The notes: generated by a model from the letters alone, not told the origin. 64,000 nucleotides of DNA from a virus (IMGVR_UViG_3300013288_000001:7140-71139); one strand, 5' to 3'. Counted from the stretch's first letter, positions 6,028-58,347 are shown. Numbers and translations: made by a program.

Positions 6028-7623
6028 ATGACTCGAAGCGTCGTCGGGGGCAACATCGAAGTTGCACTGCTCCAGAACAAAGAGCCCGTAAAGCAGCTCT
6101 ACAAGGACATGCAAAGCGCGGCGCATACGTTCGTGGTTCACAACCCTAACGATCTGTCTGTGATCCACGACTGGCGGCGGGAGCTTGCCCCTGACTACGC
6201 GGTAGCGCGGGTCTACCTCAAAGACCGCAACGAAGGCCAGATGCACATGCCGCCGCTGTCCCCTGCGGACGTGGCGGCTAAGAAACGCTGGATTGTCTCG
6301 CCAGAGGACTTCCTCAATGCCTTTGGCGAGTTCGGTCGTAACGGCCTGATCCTGAACGTCCACAACGAACCGGCACCTCCTAACGACGACAATGACCGCT
6401 GGCAGGAAGAGCGTCTGATCGAGTGGACGCTCAAGTACCTCGATCTGATTGCCCCGCTGGCGACCACCCCTAAAAAGACGGCAAGTGTTCTTTTTAACTT
6501 TGGTTTTCACCAGCCCGCGAAAGGGCGCTGGAAGTTTTACCATGAGGCGCTGCGACGGGCGAATGAACTGCCCGACGTGTATATTGGCCTGCACCTCTAC
6601 GTACACCCCACACTGCCTTACGAAGACGGGGACACGCTCAAGGAACTGGATGAGTATTGCCGCGCCAATGGCTTCAACAATATCAAGGTCATCGTCACGG
6701 AATGGGGCTTTGATAAAGGCGGTGGCAGAGGCGATGGCTACAAGTCCCCGCTCTATGGATTCAAGGATAGCCGGGACGCGGTACGGCGGCTGTACACCAG
6801 CTTCCAGACCTACCTGAAGCCCTACGTTGCCAGCGGGCGGGTCGTCGGAGTGTGCTACTTCGGTCATGGTCATGCCGACTTCCCTGGCATGGATTCCTCT
6901 AACGATCCTGACTTCCTCGATCAGATGACCTTCACTGCTAAAAACGGCGGCTTTGCGGCGTTGCTCCCCGTGCCACCGAAGCCTCCTGAAACCAAGCCCG
7001 GAACCGCACCACTGCCCTACCCCTCACCTGTACCCCTTGGAGATTCAATGGGGGTTATCAACAAGGCGGCTCGAACGCTGCGAAACGGCCCGTCTATCTC
7101 TTACCGGGTACTCGAAGAAATCCCAGTCAGCACCGAGGTCAACCTCTACACGCAGCAGGTCGTCACGGATAGTTCTAAACAGGCGTGGGTATGGTGTGAT
7201 TACGTCACGGACAAAGGTCAGCGGGCGGGTTGGGTGTGCATCAGTGGATGGTCATACCGCTACAAGCCTGTAGACAAGCCTAGCGGCACGCCAGTACGTC
7301 GCAGCTTGACCTTTGCAGGCGTTCGGCGGCCTGTACGTCAGGGGCCGGGTGAAAAGTGGGACACCGTTGGCTCACTGGTCAAAGGCACGCCGGTGGATGT
7401 CTGGCTGAAGCCAGTGCAGGGCTGGATGTACGTGGAAAATGGACAGGTCAAGGGCTGGATTGACGTGGATGGGATCAGTTTCAATCTGGTTGCGGACAAC
7501 ACGCCGGATACGATTGTGCTGCCCGCGCCGTCCAAGGGTTGCGTCTACGTGCAGGTGCCAGCCGCGTTGCTGGATACCCTGGCGCAGTGGGTAGGCTCGA
7601 TTGAGCGCTATCCGGCGGGGTAA
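6028..7623 (+). CDS. putative endolysin: clan GH-A glycoside hydrolase plus two SH3b domains
   Basis: HNEP (acid/base) and VTEWG (nucleophile) motifs; Pro-rich linker; two LRxGP...GW SH3_3-like repeats. Confidence 0.75.
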   Translation: MTRSVVGGNIEVALLQNKEPVKQLYKDMQSAAHTFVVHNPNDLSVIHDWRRELAPDYAVARVYLKDRNEGQMHMPPLSPADVAAKKRWIVSPEDFLNAFGEFGRNGLILNVHNEPAPPNDDNDRWQEERLIEWTLKYLDLIAPLATTPKKTASVLFNFGFHQPAKGRWKFYHEALRRANELPDVYIGLHLYVHPTLPYEDGDTLKELDEYCRANGFNNIKVIVTEWGFDKGGGRGDGYKSPLYGFKDSRDAVRRLYTSFQTYLKPYVASGRVVGVCYFGHGHADFPGMDSSNDPDFLDQMTFTAKNGGFAALLPVPPKPPETKPGTAPLPYPSPVPLGDSMGVINKAARTLRNGPSISYRVLEEIPVSTEVNLYTQQVVTDSSKQAWVWCDYVTDKGQRAGWVCISGWSYRYKPVDKPSGTPVRRSLTFAGVRRPVRQGPGEKWDTVGSLVKGTPVDVWLKPVQGWMYVENGQVKGWIDVDGISFNLVADNTPDTIVLPAPSKGCVYVQVPAALLDTLAQWVGSIERYPAG

Positions 7624-7675
7624 AGACAATCAGCAATACATTCAGTAAGCAAATCAATCAAATAGTAAAATATTG

Positions 7676-8041
7676 CTACCACCCCTCATCATGTTCATCT
7701 CCGTCAGGGTAAAATGGGGGCATGTCTCCCCACTTTTCGTCCCAAAAATCATCTTCGTCCATAAATTCTGCTCCGCATAACCAAACAGGTGTACCAGGAA
7801 TAAAAACCTGAGTAATGAGCGGCCTGAATAATTCAATCATTTCAGTCTCTGACATTGGCACATCAACCCAGCAGTGAACACCTTGTGAGTATTCGTCTTT
7901 GACGTAGGCAAACACGCGGTGTGTCCATTTGGGATCACCCCAATCTTGCGGTCGGCGCATTTCTGACCAAAGCGTGCCATCTGGCAAAGGCTTTGATGCA
8001 ACGATTGTCCAAACCTGCGTAATAAGCTTGGTTTCCATCAT
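7676..8041 (-). CDS. hypothetical protein
   Basis: 121-aa ORF with AAGGAG RBS. Confidence 0.6.
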   Translation of the reverse strand: MMETKLITQVWTIVASKPLPDGTLWSEMRRPQDWGDPKWTHRVFAYVKDEYSQGVHCWVDVPMSETEMIELFRPLITQVFIPGTPVWLCGAEFMDEDDFWDEKWGDMPPFYPDGDEHDEGW

Positions 8042-8062
8042 TAACTCCTTTAGAAAAACCGA

Positions 8063-8197
8063 TCAGCGAACAAGCCAGATTCGAGTATGCCGCAACCCGT
8101 CATAGACAGGCCGCAAAAACGAGAGGCCGCCCAGGTAGATCAAGGCGACTAGCAACAGCAGGACAGCGGTCAAGGGAATAGCAACGCAGCGTTTCAT
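8063..8197 (-). CDS. small membrane peptide (44 aa)
   Basis: MKRCVAIPLTAVLLLLVALIYLGGLSFLRPVYDGLRHTRIWLVR*; ATGA overlap with the methyltransferase stop. Confidence 0.5.
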   Translation of the reverse strand: MKRCVAIPLTAVLLLLVALIYLGGLSFLRPVYDGLRHTRIWLVR

Positions 8198-9729
8198 TGA
8201 AGACTCTCCATTACTTGCCGACCAAGCCATTTAGCAACTTCCGGTGTTACAGCGTTGCCAATTTGCTTGACCTGCTCGGACTTGTTCCCAGTGATGATGT
8301 AACTTTGAGGAAAGCTCATAGCCAGCTTAAGTTCCTGCGGTACCAGCATCCGGAAGCCGCAATCCGGTAGCATTTCCTCAGGGGTAATCAGCGCGTGACG
8401 ATCCACCGTCGTCAGAGTCGGCAATGGTTCACTGGTACGGGCGTAGGTGGGCTGATTGCCATAATAGGCCATAATCAGCGCATGATGCGCCCCGGTTGAC
8501 GTAATTGTAGATAGAGGCTCATCCACGTTGCGAACCGTCGAATTCTGCCGTAATTCCGCCAGGAATGGAGGCATCACCAGTCCATGCTGGCTGGCGCTGG
8601 CAACCACCGTAGTCAGTGGTTCATCAACGCCAATACTCGGCTGGTTGTAACCGTCTTTGGCACTGTTTTTCATAACCGTCATAAACGGCGGCACACAAAG
8701 TTGCTGTTCATTGTTCATGCTGGTGACACACCACAGCGGGTCATCAACCGTCCTCAAAGGATTGCGCCCATCGTGCTGGGAAGTCAGGAACGGTGGCACC
8801 AAGGCCAGCGTTTGCTGACTGGTGATGGTGTGCAGAACCCCGTCCAGCGATGAGACCTTGCCGGGGTGTTCGGCGTGCAGGTGTCCTAGATCGAGCACAT
8901 GACCGCCGAATTTTTTCAGACCGGCCAGAACGCGTTCCATCGTGCGAGGCTTCAGTGGTTTTTCACGGTCTCCAATGCGCGGGCATTCCAGTGACCAGTC
9001 AATGATGCTGGCTGCCGCGGTATGACCGGGCTTAATTTCTTCGCCGCACTGCGGGCAACGATAGACATACTGCCGCCGGGTGCCATAACGTCCCCAGGGG
9101 AAATCTGATTTCTTAAAGCTTTGAATAGCTTTAACAGTCCCATGCTTGGAGCAATTCGCCAGCGGGCGAAAGTCCAGATCGGGCGCTTTGTTGCCACGCT
9201 TCCAGAACACCGCGTAGAAACGATCCCGACTCTGCGGAACGCCAAAAAACTGGCTATTGAAATAGCAAATGCGGTGCTCATAGCCAAGATTTCGCATGGC
9301 CGTTAGCCACTGGTCATAGTATTCCCAATAGCGAATGTCTACTACATTCTCAACAATGACCGCTTCGTATTGATGATAGGCGGTAAACTCGACCACTTCT
9401 CGCATAGTGGCACGACTGCGGATTTCATCGGGGGTAAGCACGCTTTCTCCCCACAAGTCCAGCTGCGAAGCGCCTTTGCGCTTGCGCCCCTTTGCCAGAC
9501 TATGAGAGGTGCAGCTGGGCGAAAACCATGCCACATCAGTACGCGGATACCAGGACGGATGCGCCTCCTGAAGATCGTCAATGCTGTGTTCTGTTTGCGG
9601 ATGGTTGGTCTGGTGTGTTTCGATGGCACGCGCCCAGTGATTTGCGGCATGACGCACTTCAAAACCAGCCTCTACCAAGCCGGTGCTACTCCCCCCTGCC
9701 CCGCAAAAGAAATCGGTGGCAGTAATCAC
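8194..9729 (-). CDS. C5-cytosine DNA methyltransferase
   Basis: DFFCGAGG (motif I), FSPSC (IV), ENV (VI), QSRDR (VIII), KQIGNAV (X); repeated EPLxTxT segments in the variable region. Confidence 0.9.
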   Translation of the reverse strand: MITATDFFCGAGGSSTGLVEAGFEVRHAANHWARAIETHQTNHPQTEHSIDDLQEAHPSWYPRTDVAWFSPSCTSHSLAKGRKRKGASQLDLWGESVLTPDEIRSRATMREVVEFTAYHQYEAVIVENVVDIRYWEYYDQWLTAMRNLGYEHRICYFNSQFFGVPQSRDRFYAVFWKRGNKAPDLDFRPLANCSKHGTVKAIQSFKKSDFPWGRYGTRRQYVYRCPQCGEEIKPGHTAAASIIDWSLECPRIGDREKPLKPRTMERVLAGLKKFGGHVLDLGHLHAEHPGKVSSLDGVLHTITSQQTLALVPPFLTSQHDGRNPLRTVDDPLWCVTSMNNEQQLCVPPFMTVMKNSAKDGYNQPSIGVDEPLTTVVASASQHGLVMPPFLAELRQNSTVRNVDEPLSTITSTGAHHALIMAYYGNQPTYARTSEPLPTLTTVDRHALITPEEMLPDCGFRMLVPQELKLAMSFPQSYIITGNKSEQVKQIGNAVTPEVAKWLGRQVMESLQ

Positions 9730-10073
9730 AGCCCTGCCCCGATCAACTCGTTATGGCGGGCGATGCGTTCCGCGTCATAGTCCCAGTTTAGTTCGATAAA
9801 CCGCGCCAGAGTCAGGCGAGTGGCCTTGCCGCTGTAGGCTGGCTTAATCGTCACGGTCTTTGCGGTGATGCTGGTGATTTCACCCACGTAGATGAGGTTC
9901 CAGCTTCCATGTACCGCCTTGTCCCCGACAACAAATACCAGGTCAAACGGCACGGGTTCAGACACAGTATGCTTGCCAAAGATACGGACACTCTGGCGCG
10001 GCATGACATTGGCATGATGCTCATCTAGCAGCTTGTCGGTTTCCAAGTGCCGGTGTTCGATGATGTTAGGCAT
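9726..10073 (-). CDS. hypothetical protein
   Basis: 115-aa ORF coupled to neighbours. Confidence 0.6.
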   Translation of the reverse strand: MPNIIEHRHLETDKLLDEHHANVMPRQSVRIFGKHTVSEPVPFDLVFVVGDKAVHGSWNLIYVGEITSITAKTVTIKPAYSGKATRLTLARFIELNWDYDAERIARHNELIGAGL

Positions 10074-37989: not shown

Positions 37990-38493
37990 ATGGCAGCACC
38001 GAAACAGAAGCGAACACGATGGTCAAAAGCAGGGAAGTCTACGATCCCGTGGCCTAAAGACCCGAATATCATGGCGAGGATCGAGGCGGTCAACCGAATG
38101 CGGCTGGAAGGCATTTGGATTAGTGACATCGCCCAGCGCCTGGAATGCTCCGAGCAGACCGTTCGACGGGACATCCGGCGTATGCAGGACATCCTCATTG
38201 AAGAGCGTAAGGGCGATATGCGCCTCATCCAGGACGAAGCCATTGACCGCTACCGGGAAGTGCAACGGCGGGCGATGGAACTCTACAACCAACACAGCGA
38301 TAGCCGCACAAAGCTGGGGGCGCTCAAGGAGTACCGGGAAGCGCAGGCCCGCATTGACCAACTGACAGGAGCCGCAGCGCCGATCAAGGTGGATCACACG
38401 ACGGGCGGTAAAGCGCTGGACATGAAGATGATGACTGAAAGTCAACTGGAAGCCATCGCCGCTGGCAGGTTGCCCGATGACTCTAGCGACTAG
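37990..38493 (+). CDS. terS: terminase small subunit
   Basis: HTH (ISDIAQRLECSEQTVRRDI), DHTTGGK tail, directly upstream of terL. Confidence 0.75.
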   Translation: MAAPKQKRTRWSKAGKSTIPWPKDPNIMARIEAVNRMRLEGIWISDIAQRLECSEQTVRRDIRRMQDILIEERKGDMRLIQDEAIDRYREVQRRAMELYNQHSDSRTKLGALKEYREAQARIDQLTGAAAPIKVDHTTGGKALDMKMMTESQLEAIAAGRLPDDSSD

Positions 38494-39997
38494 GGGAAAG
38501 GTCACTGCTGAACAGCAGGCAGCAGCCGCCGAACTGCTGAAGCGACGGCGGGCACGTTCCCGGTTCCTTGACTTTTGCTACTACGTCCGCAGTGACTTCG
38601 TGGCTGATCCCTTTCACGTCAAAATGGCGGATACGCTTGACCGGGTACTGGAAGGGGAGATTAAAAAGCTCATCATCCTGGCACCGCCTCAGCATGGCAA
38701 GTCCTCAATGGTGTCCGAGTTGTTCCCGGCTTACTGGTTAGGCCGTCGCCCCAATGACCCGGTCATTGAAACCAGCTACACCATCTCCATTGCGCGGCGC
38801 AACTCGTTTGCATCCCGCGATTACGTCAAGAGCAATGAGTTTCGCGCTGTCTTTGGCGACCTGGGCATTCAGGACGTAGACCCGGTTGGCATTCGAGAGG
38901 ATAAGCAGGAAGTCACGGAATGGACGCTGCGTAAGCCTTATCGCGGTGGCTTGCGGGCAGCAGGTATCGGCGGCTCTCTCACGGGTTATCCGGGCAAGCT
39001 GGGCATTATTGATGACCCGTTCAAGGACGACAAAGAAGCCTCTTCGTTTCTGAAGCGGGAAACGGCGTGGTCATGGTTCCTGAACGTCTTTCGTACCCGT
39101 ATTGCGGAAGACGGCGCGATGGTGGTGGTCATGACCCGCTGGCATGAGGATGATCTGGTAGGGCGCATTCTGACCTTAGATGAAGACTGGACACTCATGC
39201 GCTTCCCGGCGCTGTCTGAAACCCAAAGCGACCGCGATTACAACAATCGCAAGTTGGGTTTGCCCGATGGTCTGCCGGACATCCTCGGCAGGGAGCCGGA
39301 GGAACCGCTGGCCGTCAGCCGCCGCTCTAAAACCTTCCTACTCAATGAACGCAGCGTCAACCCGGCGGGCTGGCCTGCACTGTTTCAAGGCGTCCCGCGT
39401 CCGGCAGATGGTACACGCTTCAAGCGGGCATGGCTTCGAGGGGAAGAGGGGGAGTACATCGTGGATGTAACGCCTCAGTTTGCGGATCGTGTGCGCTATT
39501 GGGACAAGGCGGGTACGGAAGGCGACGGCGCGTATACCGCTGGCGTGCTGATCGCTGTCAAGGATGGCATCTACTACGTCGAAGATGTGGTGAGAGGTCA
39601 ATGGTCAGCCTACAACCGGGAACAGATGATTAAAGAGACTGCCGAGAGGGATGAACGGCGGCATGGCGGGGTAGCCATCTGGATTGAGCAAGAGCCGGGT
39701 AGCGGTGGCAAGGAAAGCGCCGAGTCCACTATTCGCAATCTGGCTGGTTTTGACATCCGGGCCGAGTCGCCAGTCGGCAATAAGGATGCACGTATCAACC
39801 CCTTTGCATCGCAAGCCGAAGCGGGCAACGTGCGCTTACTGCGAGGCGACTGGAACGATGAATACATTGAGGAATTGATCGCTATTTCCAAAGGCAAATA
39901 TCGTGACCAAGCCGACGCCACAGCGGGGGCATTCAACAAATTGACCAAGCCGGAAGGCACCGTGAGAAGAACAAAAGTTCGTCGCTCCAACTGGTGA
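38477..39997 (+). CDS. terL: terminase large subunit
   Basis: APPQHGKS Walker A, IIDDP Walker B, MTRWHEDD, nuclease WDKA and DQADA. Confidence 0.93.
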   Translation: MTLATRGKVTAEQQAAAAELLKRRRARSRFLDFCYYVRSDFVADPFHVKMADTLDRVLEGEIKKLIILAPPQHGKSSMVSELFPAYWLGRRPNDPVIETSYTISIARRNSFASRDYVKSNEFRAVFGDLGIQDVDPVGIREDKQEVTEWTLRKPYRGGLRAAGIGGSLTGYPGKLGIIDDPFKDDKEASSFLKRETAWSWFLNVFRTRIAEDGAMVVVMTRWHEDDLVGRILTLDEDWTLMRFPALSETQSDRDYNNRKLGLPDGLPDILGREPEEPLAVSRRSKTFLLNERSVNPAGWPALFQGVPRPADGTRFKRAWLRGEEGEYIVDVTPQFADRVRYWDKAGTEGDGAYTAGVLIAVKDGIYYVEDVVRGQWSAYNREQMIKETAERDERRHGGVAIWIEQEPGSGGKESAESTIRNLAGFDIRAESPVGNKDARINPFASQAEAGNVRLLRGDWNDEYIEELIAISKGKYRDQADATAGAFNKLTKPEGTVRRTKVRRSNW

Positions 39998-48097: not shown

Positions 48098-49651
48098 ATG
48101 TTTCAGAGCGATGGATTTCAGCATAATGCAGTTCAGATAGGCGGCGAGAGCGCGGTTGTCGATGCTCGCGTCCGGATCTATCGTGCTGAATTCCTCGCTC
48201 CGGCTTCAGCGTCAGGCCCGCAAACGGTTACAGCCAACCTCATTCCGAGTGGTGAAACCTTCTATCAAGCGACGGTGACACCCGGTGCGGTGTCGGTTGC
48301 GGCCAACCTGATTGCATCGGCGGAAACGGTCTACAGTGCCAGCGTAACCCCCGGCGCGGTGACAGTTTCAGCGAACCTCATCCCCTCTGCCGAGACGTTC
48401 TACAACGCCTCTGTGACCGTAGGCGATGTCACGGTTTCCGCGCAACTGATCGCCAGTGGGGAAGTGTTTTATCAGGCGACAGTCACTCCCGGCGCAGTAA
48501 CGGTCACAGCGAATATTATCCCGTCGGGCGAAACATTCTATCAGGCATCGGTTGCCCCTGGTGCTGCGACAGTCAGTGCCAACCTGATTGCCAGCGCCGA
48601 ACAGTTCTATCAAGCCTCAGTGACACCCGGCGCTGTGACCATCAGTGCCAACCTGATCGCATCGGCTGAAACCTTCTATCAGGCCAGCGTAGGCGCAGCT
48701 GCGACCACGATTACAGCCAACCTGATTGCATCTGGAGAGGTGTTCTACCAGGCCAGTGTGAGCGTTGGGGCAGTGACCGTCAGTGCGAACCTGATTGCCA
48801 GTGCGGAGACGTTCTATCAGGCAACCGTAACACCGGGTGCTGTGAGTATCGCGGCTCAGGTCATTGCGTCGGCTGAAACCTTCTACAACGCAAGTGTCAG
48901 CCCCGGCGCAGTTTCCATCGGCGCAAATCTCATCGCCAGTGCGGAGCAGATCTATCAGGCCAGTGTGACGACCGGACCGGTCACAATCGCAGCGCAGTTG
49001 ATCGCCTCTGCCGAACAGTTCTACCAGGCGACTGTGACCACCGGCAATGCGCCGGTGGAAGCCCAACTCATCGCCAGCGCGGAAACCTTCTACCAGGCCA
49101 CCGTGACACCGGGGCCGGTCACTGTCACGGCTAACTTGATCGCCTCCGCTGAAACGTTCTATCAGGCGACGGTGCAGGTCGGTGCTCTATCCATCGCGGC
49201 CAACCTGATCCCCTCCGCAGAACAGTTCTACAACGCAAGTGTGACGACTGGCGCGGTCACAGTCACGGCGAACCTGATCCCATCGGGTGAAAGCTTCTAC
49301 CTTGCCAGCGTTTCAGCCGGTGCGCTTACGGTCACAGCCAACCTGATCGCCAGTGCCGAGAGCTTCTACCAGGCGTCGGTGAGTGTTGGCCCGGTCACAA
49401 TTACTGCCAACCTTATTCCTTCCAGCGAAGTCTTTTACAACGCCAGCGTACAACTCATGCTGGCGATTATTCAAGCCAACCTTATCCCCACTGCCGAGGC
49501 GTTTTATCTGGCCTCGATTGGCTCACAGGCGTTCTCAGGACGCGGTTCGATCAGCATTCTCAGCAGCGGAAACAGTATCGAGGTCTTGCGCCAGAGCAAC
49601 ACATTGAGCATCCGGCAAGGCGCAGTCTCATTGGAGGTCTTGCCCACATGA
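48098..49651 (+). CDS. repeat fibre-like protein with 19 x 23-aa repeats
   Basis: Consensus AVTVTANLIASAETFYQASVTPG, repeats counted by hand. Confidence 0.75.
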   Translation: MFQSDGFQHNAVQIGGESAVVDARVRIYRAEFLAPASASGPQTVTANLIPSGETFYQATVTPGAVSVAANLIASAETVYSASVTPGAVTVSANLIPSAETFYNASVTVGDVTVSAQLIASGEVFYQATVTPGAVTVTANIIPSGETFYQASVAPGAATVSANLIASAEQFYQASVTPGAVTISANLIASAETFYQASVGAAATTITANLIASGEVFYQASVSVGAVTVSANLIASAETFYQATVTPGAVSIAAQVIASAETFYNASVSPGAVSIGANLIASAEQIYQASVTTGPVTIAAQLIASAEQFYQATVTTGNAPVEAQLIASAETFYQATVTPGPVTVTANLIASAETFYQATVQVGALSIAANLIPSAEQFYNASVTTGAVTVTANLIPSGESFYLASVSAGALTVTANLIASAESFYQASVSVGPVTITANLIPSSEVFYNASVQLMLAIIQANLIPTAEAFYLASIGSQAFSGRGSISILSSGNSIEVLRQSNTLSIRQGAVSLEVLPT

Positions 49652-49980
49652 CAACCGCTTTCACGCAACGCTTCATTGGCGAAACAAGCACTCTGGAATT
49701 TAAGTTCGTGAATTCCAGCGGGGTAGCAGCCAACCCGTCCGGTATCACGCTCAAGATTGGCGTCTGGAATAAGGCGGCAGGGGTGGTCAATCAACTGACT
49801 GACCCGGCTGTGACCCAATCCGCCATGAGCAACCCGGCAACCGGCACATGGCGCTACGACTACACCTGGGAGCAAGCAGGACTGCATATCATCGAAGTAG
49901 AAACGACTGGCACACCGACGACCGTCATTCGCACTGAGGTCATTGTGGTTGCGCCGGACTTGACCTGGAGCACATCATGA
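49648..49980 (+). CDS. small Ig-like/BppU-like virion protein
   Basis: beta-rich; GTWRYDYTWEQAG. Confidence 0.5.
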   Translation: MTTAFTQRFIGETSTLEFKFVNSSGVAANPSGITLKIGVWNKAAGVVNQLTDPAVTQSAMSNPATGTWRYDYTWEQAGLHIIEVETTGTPTTVIRTEVIVVAPDLTWSTS

Positions 49981-52115
49981 CCAAACCTTTAACCCCCGCC
50001 ATGAAGCGGGCGATGGAAGCCTATCAGACGAACGGCGTAACGGCGCTTTCCGGCGTTGATCCCCGGACGCGGCGGGCGCTGGAAGCCCGTGCGCTCATTC
50101 CCCGCGAGTCGGTGGGGGAGATTGTCGGACGCCCGCGGACCAACCGCATGACGGTCAACTGGCGCGATGCAGGTTTCAGCATTACGCCTACCCGCGATCC
50201 GGGGCAGAGTGACTATCAGTTCTGGGACATGATGTGGCGCGGGCAAGCCAGAGGCTACGAGCTGGCGGGGCTGCTGCTGAAGCCGCTGGCCTCCAAGATC
50301 GCCGCCTGGACGATGGGAACGCCGCCGCGCTTTCGCTCCAAGAAGCCCCGTACCCAGTCGTTATTCAATGAATGGTGGGCTAAGAACCTGCCGAACATCA
50401 TCCGGGGCGTAGAACACGCAGTCATCAAGGGCGATGCCTATCTGGTGGTCAATCCGCCCAACGCGAGAGGCGAACTGACCTTAACCCTACTCCCCCCGGA
50501 AGTCGTGACTGCCGTGGTGGATGAAAATGACTACAGCCGGCGCATCGGCTGGCGGATCGTCGAAGTGCATCCTCACCCGACGCGCATTGCCGATAGCATG
50601 ACGGTGGAAGACATCTACACCACGACGGAACGCATTCGGCGCGTCTGGCGGAGTGGGATGCCCGTTAAAGAAGAACGCTTCCCCAACCTGACCGGACTGG
50701 TACCCGTCATCAAGATCAGCAATGATCGGGGTGCAGATGAAGAGTTCGGACGGTCGGGGGCTGAGGCGCTATTGACACTCTTCAAGATGTACCACGATGT
50801 GCTGAAGGCCGGTCTGGAAGGCAACCTGAAGCAGGGGAGGCCAACCCCGGTACTCGAAAAGATGGGTACTCAGAAACAGATTGACGACTGGTGGGAAGCC
50901 TTCGGTTCCAAGCAAACGCGGGAACTCGACGATGGCACGACGGAAACTTACTACGTGCTGGATCTATCCAGTGACGACGCCATAACCTTAGGCGGCGATG
51001 CCACCTTCCGTTACGCGCAACCCATGAGCTTTAGCGCCGATACAATGAACCTGCTGGGACTACTGTTCTACCTGTACATCCAGCATACAGAAATCCCTGA
51101 GTTCATCATGGGCAACGCTATTGCGTCCTCTAAGGCCAGCGCCGAAACGCAGATGCCCGCTTTTGCCAAGTTCATCGAAAAGAAACAGGGTGAATGTCTG
51201 CACTGGATGAACGATCTGGCACAGGTGGTCATCGCCTTTTTCAGCCTGTATGAACGCGGGGTGAATGCCAATGACGACCTGCAAACCACCTTCGTGCCGC
51301 TCACGTCACAGGACGGACGGTTGACACTGGACGCCATTAAGATGGGGCTGGACTTCGGTCTACTCGACGACGAAACCGCGCTCCAGTTCATGCCACTGGA
51401 CATTGAGAACCCGGAACAGGTCATCCTCAAGGCGCGGCAGGAAGCGGAGGAAAAACGACTGGCGGCACGGCAAGCCCGGATGCAAGATGACATCGAAGTC
51501 TCGCCCGTTGTCGAACCGCGCAACCCCAATCCCGCCGAGTCTGCACCAGTCCAGCGGACGCTCTCAGAAGCCAAGCATACCGGCGCGATGTTGGCCTTTA
51601 TGCTGGATGGCACAGCAGCCTCAGCACTCGCCAGCGCGGTTGAAATGGCGGGTATCCCGGCGGCTGATCGCCTCCCTACCGATGAGCTGCACCTGACGCT
51701 GGCCTACTTAGGCGATACGTCGGAGTTGGACTTTGAGGAAAGCGATGTCATGCAGGTGTTAGGGGACTTCGCTGGCACCGAGTTCAACGTGAGAGGCAAA
51801 CTGAGTGGCATCGGACGCTTTACCAATGTGGAAGGGCCAGAGGCGACCGTGGTCTATGCGTCGGTCGATGCACCTGCCTTGCCCGCTTTCCGGCAAGCTC
51901 TGGTCGAAGCGCTAGGCGACAACGGCATTGACCATGCCCGTAACCACGGCTTTACCCCGCACATTTCGCTGATGTACCTGAAGCCGGATGTCCCCACGCC
52001 CAACATCGAACTGCCTGATCTGGAGATGGTCTTTGACCGTATCACATTGATGTGGGGAGATAATCGGACGGATTTCAACTTGAAAGGATCGCCACTGGAG
52101 ATGATCCCGGCGTGA
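49977..52115 (+). CDS. portal protein with C-terminal 2H phosphoesterase domain
   Basis: Position before head genes, portal-like N-terminal ~480 aa; C-terminal HLTL and HISL 2H motifs. Confidence 0.8.
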   Translation: MTKPLTPAMKRAMEAYQTNGVTALSGVDPRTRRALEARALIPRESVGEIVGRPRTNRMTVNWRDAGFSITPTRDPGQSDYQFWDMMWRGQARGYELAGLLLKPLASKIAAWTMGTPPRFRSKKPRTQSLFNEWWAKNLPNIIRGVEHAVIKGDAYLVVNPPNARGELTLTLLPPEVVTAVVDENDYSRRIGWRIVEVHPHPTRIADSMTVEDIYTTTERIRRVWRSGMPVKEERFPNLTGLVPVIKISNDRGADEEFGRSGAEALLTLFKMYHDVLKAGLEGNLKQGRPTPVLEKMGTQKQIDDWWEAFGSKQTRELDDGTTETYYVLDLSSDDAITLGGDATFRYAQPMSFSADTMNLLGLLFYLYIQHTEIPEFIMGNAIASSKASAETQMPAFAKFIEKKQGECLHWMNDLAQVVIAFFSLYERGVNANDDLQTTFVPLTSQDGRLTLDAIKMGLDFGLLDDETALQFMPLDIENPEQVILKARQEAEEKRLAARQARMQDDIEVSPVVEPRNPNPAESAPVQRTLSEAKHTGAMLAFMLDGTAASALASAVEMAGIPAADRLPTDELHLTLAYLGDTSELDFEESDVMQVLGDFAGTEFNVRGKLSGIGRFTNVEGPEATVVYASVDAPALPAFRQALVEALGDNGIDHARNHGFTPHISLMYLKPDVPTPNIELPDLEMVFDRITLMWGDNRTDFNLKGSPLEMIPA

Positions 52116-54388
52116 TTACCTATACCCGCTTCTCCATTGAGGCGATTGAACGGGACTTTGCTGACGCTTTTGAGCCGGGGGTAGACCGGATTACGCGCCT
52201 CATCCAGCAACGCGCCAGCGCCGATGGTTCACTCAACCTGAGCGGGGGTGCAAAAGACCTATTCATCGATGCCATCGGCGATGAAGTCTCCGCACTCTTC
52301 ACCCCACGCGGTAGCCGCAACGCATTCGGGCGCGATGGGGTGACGGCTCAAGCGCCGTTCCCGGTGACACTCAACCGCTGGTATGCCAACGCGGTTTATA
52401 GAGCGGTGAAACCTCATGCCGACTGGATGACCAAGCGCGTGCCACTGGACATTCAGCGGGCGCTCAAAAGCCGCGTGCAGGTGCGACGGGAGAGTTATTC
52501 ACCCATAGGCGAAACGACCAACCCGATTAAGGGATTGTTCGTGCCAAACCCGCTGGCGCAGTATGACCCGATGCACACCTGGGTAGACCCCAATGGCTAT
52601 GTCCTCTCCCAACGTATCTGGCGGGCAGGGGAGGCCACGCGCTCCAAGATTGACCGCTTGTTAGCGGACTTGATTGCGCGGGGTACAGGTTCTCTGGAGA
52701 TGTCCCGTATCCTCGAACAGTTCCTGCTTCCCGGACGCGAGTTACTCCGTACTCGTAGACCCTACGGCACCGATGCCAGCTATGACGCCATGCGACTGGC
52801 ACGGACGGAGATCGCCCATGCAGCGAACCAGGCAGCAGCCATCGCCGCCTACAGCAACCCTTATGTGGAAACCATTGACGTAGCGCGTTCCCGGTGGGGC
52901 GATCCCAATTGCAAGATTTGCCCGCAACATGCGACCATCGGCATTAACGGGGAACGTATCCGGCCAGCGTATCCAAAAGGCAGCTTTCGCATTCCACCTT
53001 TTCATCCACATTGTGTTACACCGGGTCAATTGGTGAACACTATGCGGGGCATAATCCCGATTGAAAATGTCGTGGAAGGTGATTACGTGCTTACGCACAA
53101 GGGGCGTTATCGGAAGGTGCTGGCAGCATGGAGCAAGCAGTATGACGGCTTAGTCCATGCTATCCAGACACCTTCAGGGGTTTTCGAATTAACCAGCGAG
53201 CATCCCGTTTTAACGTCTGAACGGTGGCTTGATGCCCAATTTATCCAACCGGGTCAACAAATCCTCTACGCAGCTATCTACGCTCCGCTCAATAGCATCT
53301 TGAGTGTACCGGAAAGTCATCCAGCCGAACCCCTCCAAAGCAGCATCTCGACGGGCGTCTTTGTCCGGTTTATGCCAGCCGCGCCCGTCACATTCAATCG
53401 CTACTCGGCAAGGAACAAGAGCAAAATCAAGCGAATAACGCCATACCCGATATTCCCGATGGAAGATGAGCTTGTTTCGGGTAAGGGCTTCAGCCATTGC
53501 ACGTTCAATCGACGTTGGCTCCCCATTACGCCGCATTTCAAAAACGCGCTCCAGCATGGCAGCAAGGCCGGGGTTGTATCGCTTTTTGGCAGCAGACATC
53601 TTTTTGCGAACTTCTGGTCTGCTCATGGGATTGTTTTCGCCACTCCGAACCAAAGCGGCACTGATAGATTTATACATCGCACTGGTCATGGCAGATCGGG
53701 TTCCATCATCGTGCGACCAAGTAGCAGCAACGGCTTGACTTCTGGTTTTAAGCTCCAATCCGGCGCGCTTCATCAGACTGCGAAACATACGGAAAGTTAT
53801 CCCCAACTCAGTTCGGATGGCGGGATGATTAAGCCTTTGAGTGTAGTAGAGGTCGGCAAGGACTTCGGAGTAGGGGCGATTGAATTGCCCTTCAATTCTG
53901 GCGATATGCTTGAGTTGGGCGTGGGAAGATCTGCAACTAGGGGCTTTGCAAATTTTGCCAGTACAGGGGGAATCACAAACCAAACAGCGGTTGAGCTTTG
54001 TCACGATAACCTCTCGTCGTTATCTCTCGATGTTGAAGTGGGCGCTGCGTCGAGAAACGCAGTTGTCAGCAGGGTAGCTATCCCTACTCAAGCCCATCTC
54101 TATTATAGCACGGTCGAAGGCGTAACAACCCGGCATTATTCAGGACTGGTCTACAACATGCACGTTGAAGAAGATAATTCCTATACGGTGAACAGTGCCG
54201 CTGTTCATAATTGTATGTGTAGAATTCAGGCCAACGTCGGGGACTTCGAGGAAGTGAACCGCCGACTCCGCGAATGGAGCGACATGGAAAACCCGCCGCC
54301 GCTGGATTTTCCAACGCCTTTAGACTGGTCATCGCTGCTGCTTTTGCTCCTGGGAGCCTATTTGTACAGCCAAATCGAGTTTAATTGA
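52112..54388 (+). CDS. head morphogenesis protein (SPP1 gp7/Mu gpF family) with intein
   Basis: RLARTEIA and C..C motifs; the spliced junction restores FHPH-CMCR. Confidence 0.85.
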   Translation: MITYTRFSIEAIERDFADAFEPGVDRITRLIQQRASADGSLNLSGGAKDLFIDAIGDEVSALFTPRGSRNAFGRDGVTAQAPFPVTLNRWYANAVYRAVKPHADWMTKRVPLDIQRALKSRVQVRRESYSPIGETTNPIKGLFVPNPLAQYDPMHTWVDPNGYVLSQRIWRAGEATRSKIDRLLADLIARGTGSLEMSRILEQFLLPGRELLRTRRPYGTDASYDAMRLARTEIAHAANQAAAIAAYSNPYVETIDVARSRWGDPNCKICPQHATIGINGERIRPAYPKGSFRIPPFHPHCVTPGQLVNTMRGIIPIENVVEGDYVLTHKGRYRKVLAAWSKQYDGLVHAIQTPSGVFELTSEHPVLTSERWLDAQFIQPGQQILYAAIYAPLNSILSVPESHPAEPLQSSISTGVFVRFMPAAPVTFNRYSARNKSKIKRITPYPIFPMEDELVSGKGFSHCTFNRRWLPITPHFKNALQHGSKAGVVSLFGSRHLFANFWSAHGIVFATPNQSGTDRFIHRTGHGRSGSIIVRPSSSNGLTSGFKLQSGALHQTAKHTESYPQLSSDGGMIKPLSVVEVGKDFGVGAIELPFNSGDMLELGVGRSATRGFANFASTGGITNQTAVELCHDNLSSLSLDVEVGAASRNAVVSRVAIPTQAHLYYSTVEGVTTRHYSGLVYNMHVEEDNSYTVNSAAVHNCMCRIQANVGDFEEVNRRLREWSDMENPPPLDFPTPLDWSSLLLLLLGAYLYSQIEFN
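53210..54004 (-). CDS. DUF559/Vsr-like (EDxHD-type) endonuclease encoded antisense inside the intein
   Basis: LDFALVPCRVAIECDGRGWH...DARRD.ALE..GW..FRY; NUMOD3-like GENNPMSRPEVRKKMS; Cys-rich N-terminus; GAGAGG RBS and GTG start. Confidence 0.85.
   Translation of the reverse strand: MTKLNRCLVCDSPCTGKICKAPSCRSSHAQLKHIARIEGQFNRPYSEVLADLYYTQRLNHPAIRTELGITFRMFRSLMKRAGLELKTRSQAVAATWSHDDGTRSAMTSAMYKSISAALVRSGENNPMSRPEVRKKMSAAKKRYNPGLAAMLERVFEMRRNGEPTSIERAMAEALTRNKLIFHREYRVWRYSLDFALVPCRVAIECDGRGWHKPDKDARRDAALEGFGWMTFRYTQDAIERSVDSCVEDLLTRLDKLGIKPPFRR
54102..54110 (-). promoter_or_regulatory. extended -10 promoter for the antisense endonuclease
   Basis: TGCTATAAT on the minus strand, about 100 nt upstream of GTG 54004. 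Confidence 0.65.
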
Positions 54389-54531: not shown

Positions 54532-55665
54532 ATGGCAGCGACAAAATACACCGGGCGACTCATGGAAATGAGCACTCGCTTCCAGGGGAAGTACCCTGAA
54601 GTGCCGTTGGCACCCGACATCAGCATTGACGAATTGACCGAAGGGGATGCATCGCCCTTCTTCGTTACGCTCCCGGTCGGCAGGGTAGGCGCTCAGTCCA
54701 GGAATGACCGGAAGTATCCCCGCGAGGCGGTGGAAGCGATCCAGAACGCGATTGTCAACGATAAAGTTGGTGGCATCCTCGGACACATGCGGGATGAAGA
54801 CCTGCCGTATCGCTTTGACCTGCCTGTGATGCACTGGGTAGGCGCTACGCTGGAAGGCGATACGCTGTATGGCAAGGCATATATCCCGCCGAGTCAGCAG
54901 GAACTCCGTGAGTACCTCAAGATCCAAATGAAAAAAGGTGCCAAGACCGGTACGTCCATCTTTGGGACAGCCTACATCGAGGATGACGGCACGGTGCGAG
55001 ACTTGGAAATCCAAACGATTGACCTTGCTCACGCCAGCCGGGTTGGTGTCCCAATGACCGCCGCTTTACCAATGATTACCTCCGAGACTGAAAAGTCGGA
55101 GGTTGAAATATCCGATCAGCCTATAGAGGAGTCTGAAACAATGGACGCAGAGAAGAAACTCAATGCGGAAGCTGCTCCGGTGGAACCCGCCGTCATCATT
55201 GAGATGAAGCGGAGCCACGCTGAAGCAGTTCGTGAACTGAATGCCAAGCTGCTGGAAGCCCAGGCCGAAGCTTCTGACCTGAATAAGGTTCGTGAGATGC
55301 TGGGCAAGCCCACCGACGTGATCCTGGCGCTGCAAACCCTTCAGCGCGATAAGGCCAGCCTCGCCAAAGAGAACCTGGAACTGCTCCAGGGCGCAATCAA
55401 GCTGTCGGTTGAGGAAGCTGTGAAGGTTCCCGCCGCCCGCCCAATCGTCGAAGCGGCTGTGAAGGCTGAGAAGCCTACCCGCGCCAGCGAAGTCAAGCAA
55501 GTTCTGGAAGCGGTTCTGGGCCGTACCGAGATGGTCGAACTGCTGAAGCTGGAAGTTCGTGAGGCGATGGGGCCGGAACAGACCCGCCCGCAGACCCCGG
55601 TCAAGCCGGAAGACAAGCGGGACGCCAATCCAGACTTCGTTATTCACATTCCCGGCATGGACTAA
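54532..55665 (+). CDS. prohead protease/scaffold protein
   Basis: NDRKYPREAV, GILGH, TSIFG protease-like N-terminus; coiled-coil scaffold C-terminus. Confidence 0.7.
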   Translation: MAATKYTGRLMEMSTRFQGKYPEVPLAPDISIDELTEGDASPFFVTLPVGRVGAQSRNDRKYPREAVEAIQNAIVNDKVGGILGHMRDEDLPYRFDLPVMHWVGATLEGDTLYGKAYIPPSQQELREYLKIQMKKGAKTGTSIFGTAYIEDDGTVRDLEIQTIDLAHASRVGVPMTAALPMITSETEKSEVEISDQPIEESETMDAEKKLNAEAAPVEPAVIIEMKRSHAEAVRELNAKLLEAQAEASDLNKVREMLGKPTDVILALQTLQRDKASLAKENLELLQGAIKLSVEEAVKVPAARPIVEAAVKAEKPTRASEVKQVLEAVLGRTEMVELLKLEVREAMGPEQTRPQTPVKPEDKRDANPDFVIHIPGMD

Positions 55666-56154: not shown

Positions 56155-57273
56155 ATGAGCACGACAGGCCCCCGTATCATCAGCCGCGAATCGCTGCGCT
56201 TGGAGAACATCCAGCGCCGCGTCCGTGCGGTTGAAGCCATGTCCAGCAAGAATCCAATGAAGTCTCAGTGGTTGGATATGCTGGCTGAAGGCACCATCCC
56301 CAACGCTTCCTTTGGTGAGAACTACGACCTGAAGAAGGCCGTCAAGCTGACCAAAGAAGGCGACCGTACCATTGCCGAGTTCATCGGCGCGGGTTCCATC
56401 TCGCAGGACTTCTTCGTCCGCCAGCGTTACGAAGTAGAAGCAGGCCGCGATCTGGAGCCACTTCTGTTCCCGGCGATCTACAACGTGATTAACGATGCTT
56501 CCTTGCCGGAAACCATCGAAATCAACACCCTGGGGCCGGAAGGCGTGGTCTTCGACAAAATCCTGGAAGGCGGCGAAGTCAAGTTCGCTTCCCTCGGTCA
56601 GTCGGAAAAGACCGTGCGCCTGAACCAGTACGCGGCAGGTATTGAATACTCGGAACGTCTGTTCCGCTTCAATAGCCTGTTCCGCTTCCCGTTCATCGAA
56701 CGGCAGTTCGGTGTAGCGGCGAATGCGCTCCAGAACTACATCCACATGCAGCCGATCCTAGACTACAGCTATGCCGCGTCGAATCAGACGGCAGCCAGCG
56801 CCGTCGGCAGCACCCTGGAAGAGAAGTACCACAACACGATTGACGCGGCGATCACCCACAGCCGCGCCGATACGACCTACCCGCGTCGTGGCCCGTATGT
56901 CCTGCTGGTGTCCACCTCGAACCTGAGCATGGCCCGCAAAGCCGTGACTCGCGTTCCGCAGCAGACCTTCGAGCGCCAGTCGCCTGAGGTCTTTGACAAC
57001 GTGCAGGCGGTTGTTGCCTACGACGGCTGGACGGGTACCCGTGGCAAGAAAGCCACCACCTACGCCGGTGTCACAAACAACAAAGCCTATCTCATTTCGC
57101 TGGCCTACCGCGAAATGGACTTCCAGAGCTATTACCAGCAGGCGCTTCGCCAGCAGCGTGGCGACGGTGATCTGAGCCGCTTCATCGTGGAACAGGTCAT
57201 CTATGACATGTGGTTTGGTGCCTATGCCAACCCCCGTGCGGCCGTGGAAGAGATTTCTTGGCCTACGAGCTGA
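56155..57273 (+). CDS. major capsid protein (HK97 fold)
   Basis: Position and size; GGEVKFASL, YAAGIEYS and LLVSTS patterns. Confidence 0.8.
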   Translation: MSTTGPRIISRESLRLENIQRRVRAVEAMSSKNPMKSQWLDMLAEGTIPNASFGENYDLKKAVKLTKEGDRTIAEFIGAGSISQDFFVRQRYEVEAGRDLEPLLFPAIYNVINDASLPETIEINTLGPEGVVFDKILEGGEVKFASLGQSEKTVRLNQYAAGIEYSERLFRFNSLFRFPFIERQFGVAANALQNYIHMQPILDYSYAASNQTAASAVGSTLEEKYHNTIDAAITHSRADTTYPRRGPYVLLVSTSNLSMARKAVTRVPQQTFERQSPEVFDNVQAVVAYDGWTGTRGKKATTYAGVTNNKAYLISLAYREMDFQSYYQQALRQQRGDGDLSRFIVEQVIYDMWFGAYANPRAAVEEISWPTS

Positions 57274-57282
57274 GGTAGCTGA

Positions 57283-58347
57283 ATGAACATTATCAACGTT
57301 GCCTGTCCTACCTTCAAAACTGCCGAGTCGTATGGACGCTTGGCGGGGGAGATTGCCACCTACCTTGCGGGTATGGGCTATCACGTCAACCGTATCGGTG
57401 GGGCAGGTCTCGTTGATGGTGCCCGGTTCATGCCTGTGACTGGCGGTCTGGTCATGGGGTATCCCACGCTGTTTCCGGGGTTTGGCGGGCTGGTGAATGC
57501 TGGGCCAAAACTGGCGCTCACGATGTTTGAAAGCACCCAAATCCCGTCCGAGTGGATTGAACCGTTGAATGCGTGTAACCGGATTGTCGTTCCGGCACGA
57601 TGGCTGGTCGAAGTATTCCGGCAGTCTGGCGTGGAGTCGCCGGTTGAAGTAGCCCCGTTAGGCATCAGCAACACCTTCATGGTGCCTAAGCTCCGCCGCT
57701 TCACGACCCCCTTCACGTTCCTTGTTATTGGAGATCGTGGCTACCGCAAGGGCTGGTGGCACGCGCTCCGCGCCTTCACCAACGCCTTTGGGAAAGACAC
57801 CCGCTACCGGCTCATCATCAAAGCGCGGGGTGGTCATGCCGACGCGCTGGCCGGGATCAGCAACCCCAACATCGAAGTGATTACGGATGAGTACACCGAC
57901 GCGCAAATGCTCGACCTGTACCACCGCAGTCACGTCATGGTCTTCCCAACCTGCGCTGAAGGCTTTGGTTTCCCGCCGCGTGAGTTTGCTGCGACCGGCG
58001 GTGTAGCACTGGCAACCGACTTCGGTGGCACGGCAGACGACATCGAACGGTGGGGTATCCCTATCCCTTACACGCTGTCTGAAGCGTGGGTCAATCATCA
58101 TGACTGGGATGAGAAAAAGGGACAACTCGGCCTATGGGCAGAACCGGACGTAGATGCACTGGCTGACCTGATGTATCACGTCGCCAGCCACTATGACGAA
58201 GCTTACGCGCCGTTTGGCTTAAGAGCCGCCGGGTACTGCCTGAGTCACTACACCTGGAAGCGCACCACGCAGATCATCGACCGCGCATGGAAGAAGGTAC
58301 TGGACGATGCCAGCCACACCCGACGAGAGACTGCGGTTCCGGCGTAA
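57283..58347 (+). CDS. GT4-family glycosyltransferase
   Basis: ESYG, MFEST, RKG, AEGFGFPPRE. Confidence 0.88.
   Translation: MNIINVACPTFKTAESYGRLAGEIATYLAGMGYHVNRIGGAGLVDGARFMPVTGGLVMGYPTLFPGFGGLVNAGPKLALTMFESTQIPSEWIEPLNACNRIVVPARWLVEVFRQSGVESPVEVAPLGISNTFMVPKLRRFTTPFTFLVIGDRGYRKGWWHALRAFTNAFGKDTRYRLIIKARGGHADALAGISNPNIEVITDEYTDAQMLDLYHRSHVMVFPTCAEGFGFPPREFAATGGVALATDFGGTADDIERWGIPIPYTLSEAWVNHHDWDEKKGQLGLWAEPDVDALADLMYHVASHYDEAYAPFGLRAAGYCLSHYTWKRTTQIIDRAWKKVLDDASHTRRETAVPA

Follow-up and report, generated by a model that had tools for sequence, protein, structure and literature searches.

The DNA analysed here, a 64,000-nucleotide stretch hereafter called the window (IMGVR_UViG_3300013288_000001:7140-71139), covers bases 7140-71139 of a complete uncultured phage genome of 71,139 bp with direct terminal repeats. 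At 49977-52115 it carries a gene whose product begins as a portal protein and continues, through a disordered tether, into a phosphoesterase domain of the 2H superfamily. We think it probable that this domain is a C-terminally tethered enzyme of the LigT/ThpR type that is loaded into the phage head, most likely for counter-defence. The three-part layout of the open reading frame (portal body, tether and 2H domain) is confirmed and comprises the following features:

49977-52115, plus strand: portal-2H phosphoesterase fusion gene, a stop-free open reading frame of 712 residues
50154-51494, plus strand: portal body, residues ~60-506, ending in a long C-terminal crown-type helix at residues 479-506 (PHROG 64, AlphaFold2 model, Foldseek)
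51495-51572, plus strand: disordered tether, residues ~507-532, proline-rich and acidic (predicted local distance difference test score, pLDDT, below 50 at residues 508-530)
51573-52112, plus strand: LigT/ThpR-like 2H phosphoesterase domain, residues ~533-712 (PF13563, AlphaFold2 model)
51690-51701, plus strand: catalytic motif 1, H-L-T-L, residues 572-575 with H572 and T574 (CAC CTG ACG CTG)
51960-51971, plus strand: catalytic motif 2, H-I-S-L, residues 662-665 with H662 and S664 (CAC ATT TCG CTG)

The fusion gene is real and under purifying selection. Its ATG overlaps the stop codon of the upstream open reading frame (49648-49980), and its own stop codon overlaps the GTG start of a MuF gene at 52112. 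An index of public assemblies lists the identical 712-residue protein in 62 blocks, mostly ones with contigs of 50-200 kb; the four places displayed (L009-L012) are contigs of 71-73 kb from JGI, Logan and ENA samples. By searching 5.8 billion proteins, we recovered 19 further full-length fusions at 39-97% identity, together with 33 portal-only relatives of 466-563 residues. An artefact of assembly or frameshifting is ruled out, as the identical protein occurs on many independent contigs and the architecture is kept down to 39% identity. Relative to an 85%-identical homologue (L013), the ratio of nonsynonymous to synonymous substitution rates (dN/dS) was 0.068 in the portal body, 0.136 in the tether and 0.096 in the 2H domain. 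A free 2H domain translated separately from an internal start looks unlikely, because inspection of the sequence ahead of Met538 revealed no obvious Shine-Dalgarno-like element. As a side observation, this phage is widespread and often assembled complete.

The N-terminal part of the protein matches PHROG 64, 'portal protein', with an E-value of 4e-13, and by tblastn (2e-15) it matches portals annotated in Bacillus and Clostridioides phages. Pfam SPP1_portal (PF05133) stays under its cut-off on this protein (20.8 vs 25.5 bits) and is cleared by the relative P0059 at 50.3 bits. An AlphaFold2 model of residues 1-530 (pLDDT 79.7) gave 203 Foldseek matches at E ≤ 1e-3, of which the best 40 are all portal entries. 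The model superposes with the portals of phiCD508 (9gb3, 2e-21), 80alpha (8v8b, 4e-16) and SPP1 (gp6, 7z4w, 7e-14), and also matches those of SaPI1, T7 and lambda. PHROG 64, tblastn and the predicted fold thus agree with the portal identity assigned in the first-pass annotation, and the model confirms a portal fold for the N-terminal part. The phage has no second portal gene, and the head-module context of this one comprises terL (38477-39997), the MuF gene (52112-54388) and the capsid gene (56155-57273). What had been described earlier as a coiled-coil and proline linker resolves into the helix at 479-506 followed by the proline-rich stretch with pLDDT below 50 (508-530). In an alignment of linkers, the tether is acidic and variable in length among relatives, and proline-rich in this phage; just ahead of the 2H domain it holds the tripeptide L-S-E at residues 529-531 (51561-51569).

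Over the last 181 residues, PF13563 matches with an E-value of 2.2e-13 and 51 bits against a cut-off of 27, and PHROG families annotated as 'RNA ligase' match at 3e-18. When the complete genome was searched with PF13563, this was its sole 2H domain (50.8 bits). The AlphaFold2 model of residues 520-712, built on a 24-sequence alignment, has a mean pLDDT of 89.4 and a predicted template modelling score (pTM) of 0.83. Its best Foldseek matches in the PDB are T. thermophilus TT0787 (1iuh, 3e-10) and the D. radiodurans cyclic phosphodiesterase, or CPDase (5h7e, 8e-10), with E. coli LigT next (5ldm, 1e-8). The 2H fold of the first-pass annotation is therefore predicted with confidence in the Foldseek comparison with LigT and Acb1 that it had proposed, and the two motifs on which it had relied lie where it placed them, HLTL at 51690 and HISL at 51960. 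They are 90 residues apart, a spacing within the ~80-100 residues by which the 2H superfamily is recognised. The His and Thr of motif 1 are invariant in the 24 aligned sequences and in 73 further relatives, as is the His of motif 2, where the relatives mostly have HITL rather than HISL. Across the 73 closest cluster representatives the set H, T, H, T is invariant, and 19 of 19 fused portal relatives keep both HxT/S motifs. Judged from sequence, these catalytic residues and the purifying selection argue for a probably active enzyme over a purely structural role.

Within the superfamily, the domain is a LigT-like member and neither an Acb1 nor a ThpR orthologue, because its top folds are of the LigT type and its scores on the Acb1 model (PF23474, 13.3 bits vs a cut-off of 27, E 0.07) and the ThpR equivalog (TIGR02258, 39.1 vs 65.7 bits) fall below their thresholds. 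The LigT family PF02834, at 16.8 bits against a cut-off of 23.3, is likewise missed by this protein and is passed by 67 of 73 close relatives. LigT, AKAP18, Usb1, ns2 and VP3 all rank ahead of Acb1 in structure searches, where Acb1 (7t26) appears at rank 27 in Foldseek (TMq 0.47) and at rank 38 in VIA. The label 'Acb1/LigT-like' given at first therefore holds in its LigT half, and its Acb1 half is weak.

These comparisons make it unlikely that the domain is an Acb1-type nuclease, which would cleave 3'3'-cGAMP or other cyclic oligonucleotides of cyclic oligonucleotide-based antiphage signalling systems (CBASS), either at the assembly site or after delivery by the virion. Such an identity would draw on a common 2H fold and HxT/S chemistry, Acb1 catalysis being metal-free and carried out by two histidines (Hobbs et al. 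2022, PMC9117128). Moreover, the Acb1 Pfam model matches 7 of 73 close relatives at E ≤ 1e-3, and it is also the best-scoring model (20.7 bits) for the 2H-like domain of a relative with a bare portal (L005). Set against these points are the far higher score on PF13563 than on PF23474, the low structural ranks, and the size of the domain, which is ~30 residues larger than Acb1.

The 2H domain is an optional, exchangeable cargo module that was gained or lost at least three times in the portal family and re-attached elsewhere. On a maximum-likelihood tree built from the portal region alone, fused and unfused portals interleave, with at least 3 changes by well-supported branches and 7 by parsimony. 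Fused P0006 is the immediate sister of unfused P0011, whose C-terminus is an unrelated tail and whose locus lacks a 2H domain downstream of the portal. By tblastn with eight 2H domains over ~6-10 kb around the portals, none was found beside those of unfused L003, L004, L006, L007 and L008. A split gene in the unfused relatives is ruled out at the portal loci, the sole tblastn match being to another gene, in L005. There, the 2H-like domain forms the N-terminus of a 543-residue protein (L005:16216-17847), the rest of which (residues 177-521) is an orthologue of the product of 54532-55665, a head-assembly gene of our phage (BLASTP 3e-42, 30% identity). This relocated domain has weak Pfam matches to both Acb1 and LigT.

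The same exchange is seen on a wider scale. A profile-free comparison of the 2H domain alone with 1.84 billion cluster representatives gave 3069 matches at E ≤ 1e-3, and 110 of the 145 top matches not previously collected are longer than 400 residues. Among the 73 nearest 2H clusters, Pfam detects portal domains of PF04860 in 17, SPP1_portal in 2 and Portal_Mu in 1, in agreement with PHROGs, as well as prohead protease Peptidase_S78 in 5, MuF in 3 and capsid domains in 3. A survey of fusion frequency, as had been proposed earlier, thus finds ~20 of the 73 nearest clusters fused to portals. From the PF04860, SPP1_portal and Portal_Mu fusions in this set, it follows that the portal-2H fusion arose repeatedly, on three portal families; it is not rare and is common in metagenomes. 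Cultured actinophages, among them Streptomyces phage YDN12 with its gp12, carry the same domain within proteins named 'capsid maturation protease and MuF-like fusion', and these actinophage head-protein fusions are the top BFVD matches of the 2H domain.

This distribution also bears on whether the domain could be a purely structural appendage, that is, a portal plug, a DNA-retention device or a head-core element with a 2H fold and no enzymatic role. Portal C-terminal extensions with structural roles occur in other phages, and twelve copies around the channel could touch DNA. However, both catalytic His and Thr/Ser residues are invariant in all relatives, close relatives manage without the domain (P0011 as against P0006), and the same domain is joined to non-portal proteins. 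We consider a purely structural role extremely improbable.

The reading that we favour, a head-loaded 2H enzyme, builds on the topology of the portal. The C-terminal crown of solved portals points into the capsid. When the T4 portal was given a bulky C-terminal GFP, the fusions were found inside the capsid (Rao & Black 2010, PMC3012670). Because of this topology and the T4 fusions, we infer by analogy that the 2H domain lies inside the head, in up to 12 copies. The inward C-terminus of the portal would carry a flexible tether and a metal-independent 2H enzyme, predicted to be catalytically intact; the fusion would load up to 12 copies of it per procapsid, with the portal acting as a capsid-targeting handle. 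Related phages would achieve the same by hanging this 2H clade on a scaffold/protease-like protein, a prohead protease, a MuF protein or a capsid protein, and such steady attachment to procapsid-internal proteins points to capsid loading. The target of the enzyme would be a nucleotide of host origin that contains a 2',3'-cyclic, 2'-5' or 3'-5' phosphodiester, which it would hydrolyse; candidates are oligonucleotides of immune signalling and the RNA ends that defence RNases produce. It could do so once a protease has released it and it has left the capsid along with the DNA, or while heads are being assembled in the producing cell. Release, ejection, substrate and the counter-defence role itself we likewise infer. 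An enzyme concentrated at the assembly site or carried in the virion had been suggested in the first-pass annotation by analogy with Acb1; association of the 2H domain with the head is the best-supported reading, and the analogy is the weak part.

A possible release site lies in the tether. All 19 portal-2H relatives carry [LIVM]-x-E 3-8 residues ahead of the first 2H strand, HTG-x-M-h-A. The L-S-E noted above is the version found in this phage, and the motif occupies the same position in P0002-P0021. It resembles the Glu-specific sites of T4-type prohead proteases and could be such a site. A gene that might supply the protease lies downstream:

54532-55665, plus strand: scaffold/protease-like head-assembly gene, 377 residues, phrog_3219 (function unassigned), between the MuF and capsid genes

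Across 20 homologues of its product, His85 and Asp164 are invariant and Ser142 is near-invariant in the N-terminal domain, and the C-terminal half is a coiled coil. Clusters of Peptidase_S77 and of Mu-like proteases are among its Atlas neighbours. We found no match to a protease family in Pfam (E ≤ 10) or NCBIfam (E ≤ 0.01), and searches of PDB sequences, with the single sequence and with a 20-sequence profile, returned coiled coils only. The product may be an unclassified protease-scaffold. We speculate that the prohead protease cuts the tether at [LIVM]-x-E and frees ~12 2H enzymes per capsid, which would be ejected and destroy cyclic-oligonucleotide or 2'-5'-linked signals before phage genes are expressed; alternatively, the uncut enzyme would act at assembly sites. 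This more specific scenario is tentative, and we would not expect it to hold in full. Delivery of a signal-degrading nuclease by the virion would, if true, be demonstrated for the first time, and the assembly-site alternative would station the enzyme at the place where head proteins trigger signalling defences.

Several points weigh against a head-loaded counter-defence enzyme. The phage is known from metagenomes. As long as it is bound to the portal, the domain remains in the emptied capsid and is injectable only if it is cut off, and for the phage's protease there is a tentative candidate at most. The candidate cleavage motif itself may be an intrinsic cap or part of the 2H fold, because a similar K/x-E-x-HTG is also present where the 2H domain is N-terminal or stands alone. 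T4 tolerates a C-terminal GFP in only about half of its portal subunits (PMC3012670), and by analogy twelve native copies of the 2H domain may need a long tether or trimming. Lastly, the closest solved relatives of the domain are RNA-end cyclic phosphodiesterases, not signal-degrading enzymes.

An activity of this last kind would be called for in RNA end-healing, where a ThpR/LigT-like 2',3'-cyclic phosphodiesterase opens the cyclic-phosphate ends that host anticodon nucleases or toxin RNases leave on tRNAs or mRNAs. Several observations make this a doubtful role for the portal-borne domain. Besides scoring below the ThpR equivalog cut-off, the domain has a Tyr, nearly invariant in the clade, at the fifth residue past the second catalytic His (HISLMY), where 1iuh has Arg (HITLAR). 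The partner genes of such a pathway are absent, as we found no RNA ligase of the Rnl1 or Rnl2 type (PF09414, PF09511), no RtcB and no Tpt1 in the complete 71-kb genome. The 2H clade is, moreover, never seen with RNA ligases (Iyer et al. 2017, PMC5512222), and a repair enzyme would have no obvious reason to be tied to head proteins.

The domain could also be an offensive RNase, a Usb1-like 2H enzyme injected with the DNA that trims or cleaves host RNAs, in parallel to the PBECR RNase domains found on MuF and portal proteins. Although this has been proposed from such parallel architectures (Iyer et al. 2017, PMC5512222), the domain has no Usb1-family-specific sequence signal, its LigT-type matches are stronger, and a portal-tethered domain reaches host RNA only if it is released. 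We regard this role as highly unlikely.

The gene that follows the portal gene is also a head gene:

52112-54388, plus strand: MuF-type minor head protein gene, intein-interrupted (PHROG 1657 head morphogenesis, 2.4e-19; Hint/intein Pfam)

The Hint/intein insert lies at residues ~298-700 of the MuF protein, and the MuF gene is translationally coupled to the portal gene. The large terminase gene sits 10 kb upstream of the portal gene, and the ~11 genes between them include glycosyltransferase-like genes, a methyltransferase gene and one for a repeat protein (48098-49651); no gene separates terminase from portal in the relatives L003, L004 and L008. In L003, a portal-only relative, Pfam identifies a 1129-residue large terminase with an intein and a LAGLIDADG endonuclease (6615-10004). 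A GT4 glycosyltransferase gene (57283-58347, plus strand) directly follows the major capsid gene of the window. Two distant relatives, L003 (16846-17853) and L004 (13628-14767), likewise have glycosyltransferase genes among their head genes, and the L004 module adds sugar-nucleotide enzymes; these head-module glycosyltransferases are consistent with virion glycosylation.

Were head-attached 2H enzymes delivered with the genome, phages would disarm RNA-cutting defences or immunity that relies on nucleotides (CBASS, type III CRISPR and the like) at time zero, ahead of any gene expression of their own, a timing unlike that of known Acb1-type enzymes. The lineage described here offers a clean test case: the protein is a simple one of two domains, near relatives either have or lack the 2H domain, and in one variant it has moved to another head protein. 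As a discovery it adds little, given that both architecture and hypothesis were published as early as 2017 and that metagenomes hold many such fusions. Fig. 5B of Iyer, Burroughs, Anand, de Souza and Aravind (2017, J Bacteriol, PMC5512222) shows 2H domains joined to MuF or portal proteins; these authors proposed that the domains are packaged and injected, and that they act as RNases or degrade the nucleotides of nucleotide-activated defence systems. The fusions were later again taken to suggest head packaging and injection against SMODS, cyclic-mononucleotide and CRISPR signalling (Iyer et al. 2022, Viruses, PMC9503650, section 3.4.5). Both the portal-2H architecture and the packaged anti-signalling hypothesis were thus already published, in 2017 and 2022, from sequence analysis. 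Our literature searches found no experimental tests of head-fused 2H domains and no paper on the phage BCSR5 phosphodiesterase (PDB 9q2g/9q2y).

Among known systems, the LigT/ThpR enzymes, comprising E. coli LigT (5ldi/5ldm), TT0787 (1iuh) and the D. radiodurans CPDase (5h7e), are the closest structural neighbours of the phage domain. They are free-standing and cellular, whereas the phage domain is fused to a virion protein, falls below the ThpR equivalog cut-off and replaces the Arg of 1iuh past motif 2 with Tyr. Acb1 (T4 gene 57B; Erwinia phage FBB1, 7t26/7t27; PMC9117128) is likewise a phage-encoded 2H protein with two catalytic histidines, metal-independent activity and a counter-defence role. 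The T4 internal proteins and Alt carry a capsid-targeting sequence, are processed by the prohead protease and are ejected with the DNA (Rao & Black 2010, PMC3012670). The likeness to our proposal lies in defence-countering proteins that are pre-loaded in the head for delivery at infection; however, the free proteins of T4 are targeted by a short peptide that can be cleaved off, whereas here the enzyme is covalently fused to the portal and would have to be released. The nearest parallel is the head-packaged 2H class of Iyer and colleagues, itself a prediction from sequence, with which our phage shares a 2H domain on the portal of a terminase-portal phage, the lack of an RNA ligase partner, and the same proposed role, namely packaging in the head and injection for degradation of immune nucleotides or for RNase action. 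Unlike the examples described there, the fusion reported here comes from an uncultured 71-kb phage with a portal of the SPP1/phiCD508 type and represents a separate lineage that had no name before, and the gain, loss and re-attachment of the domain are documented inside one portal family.

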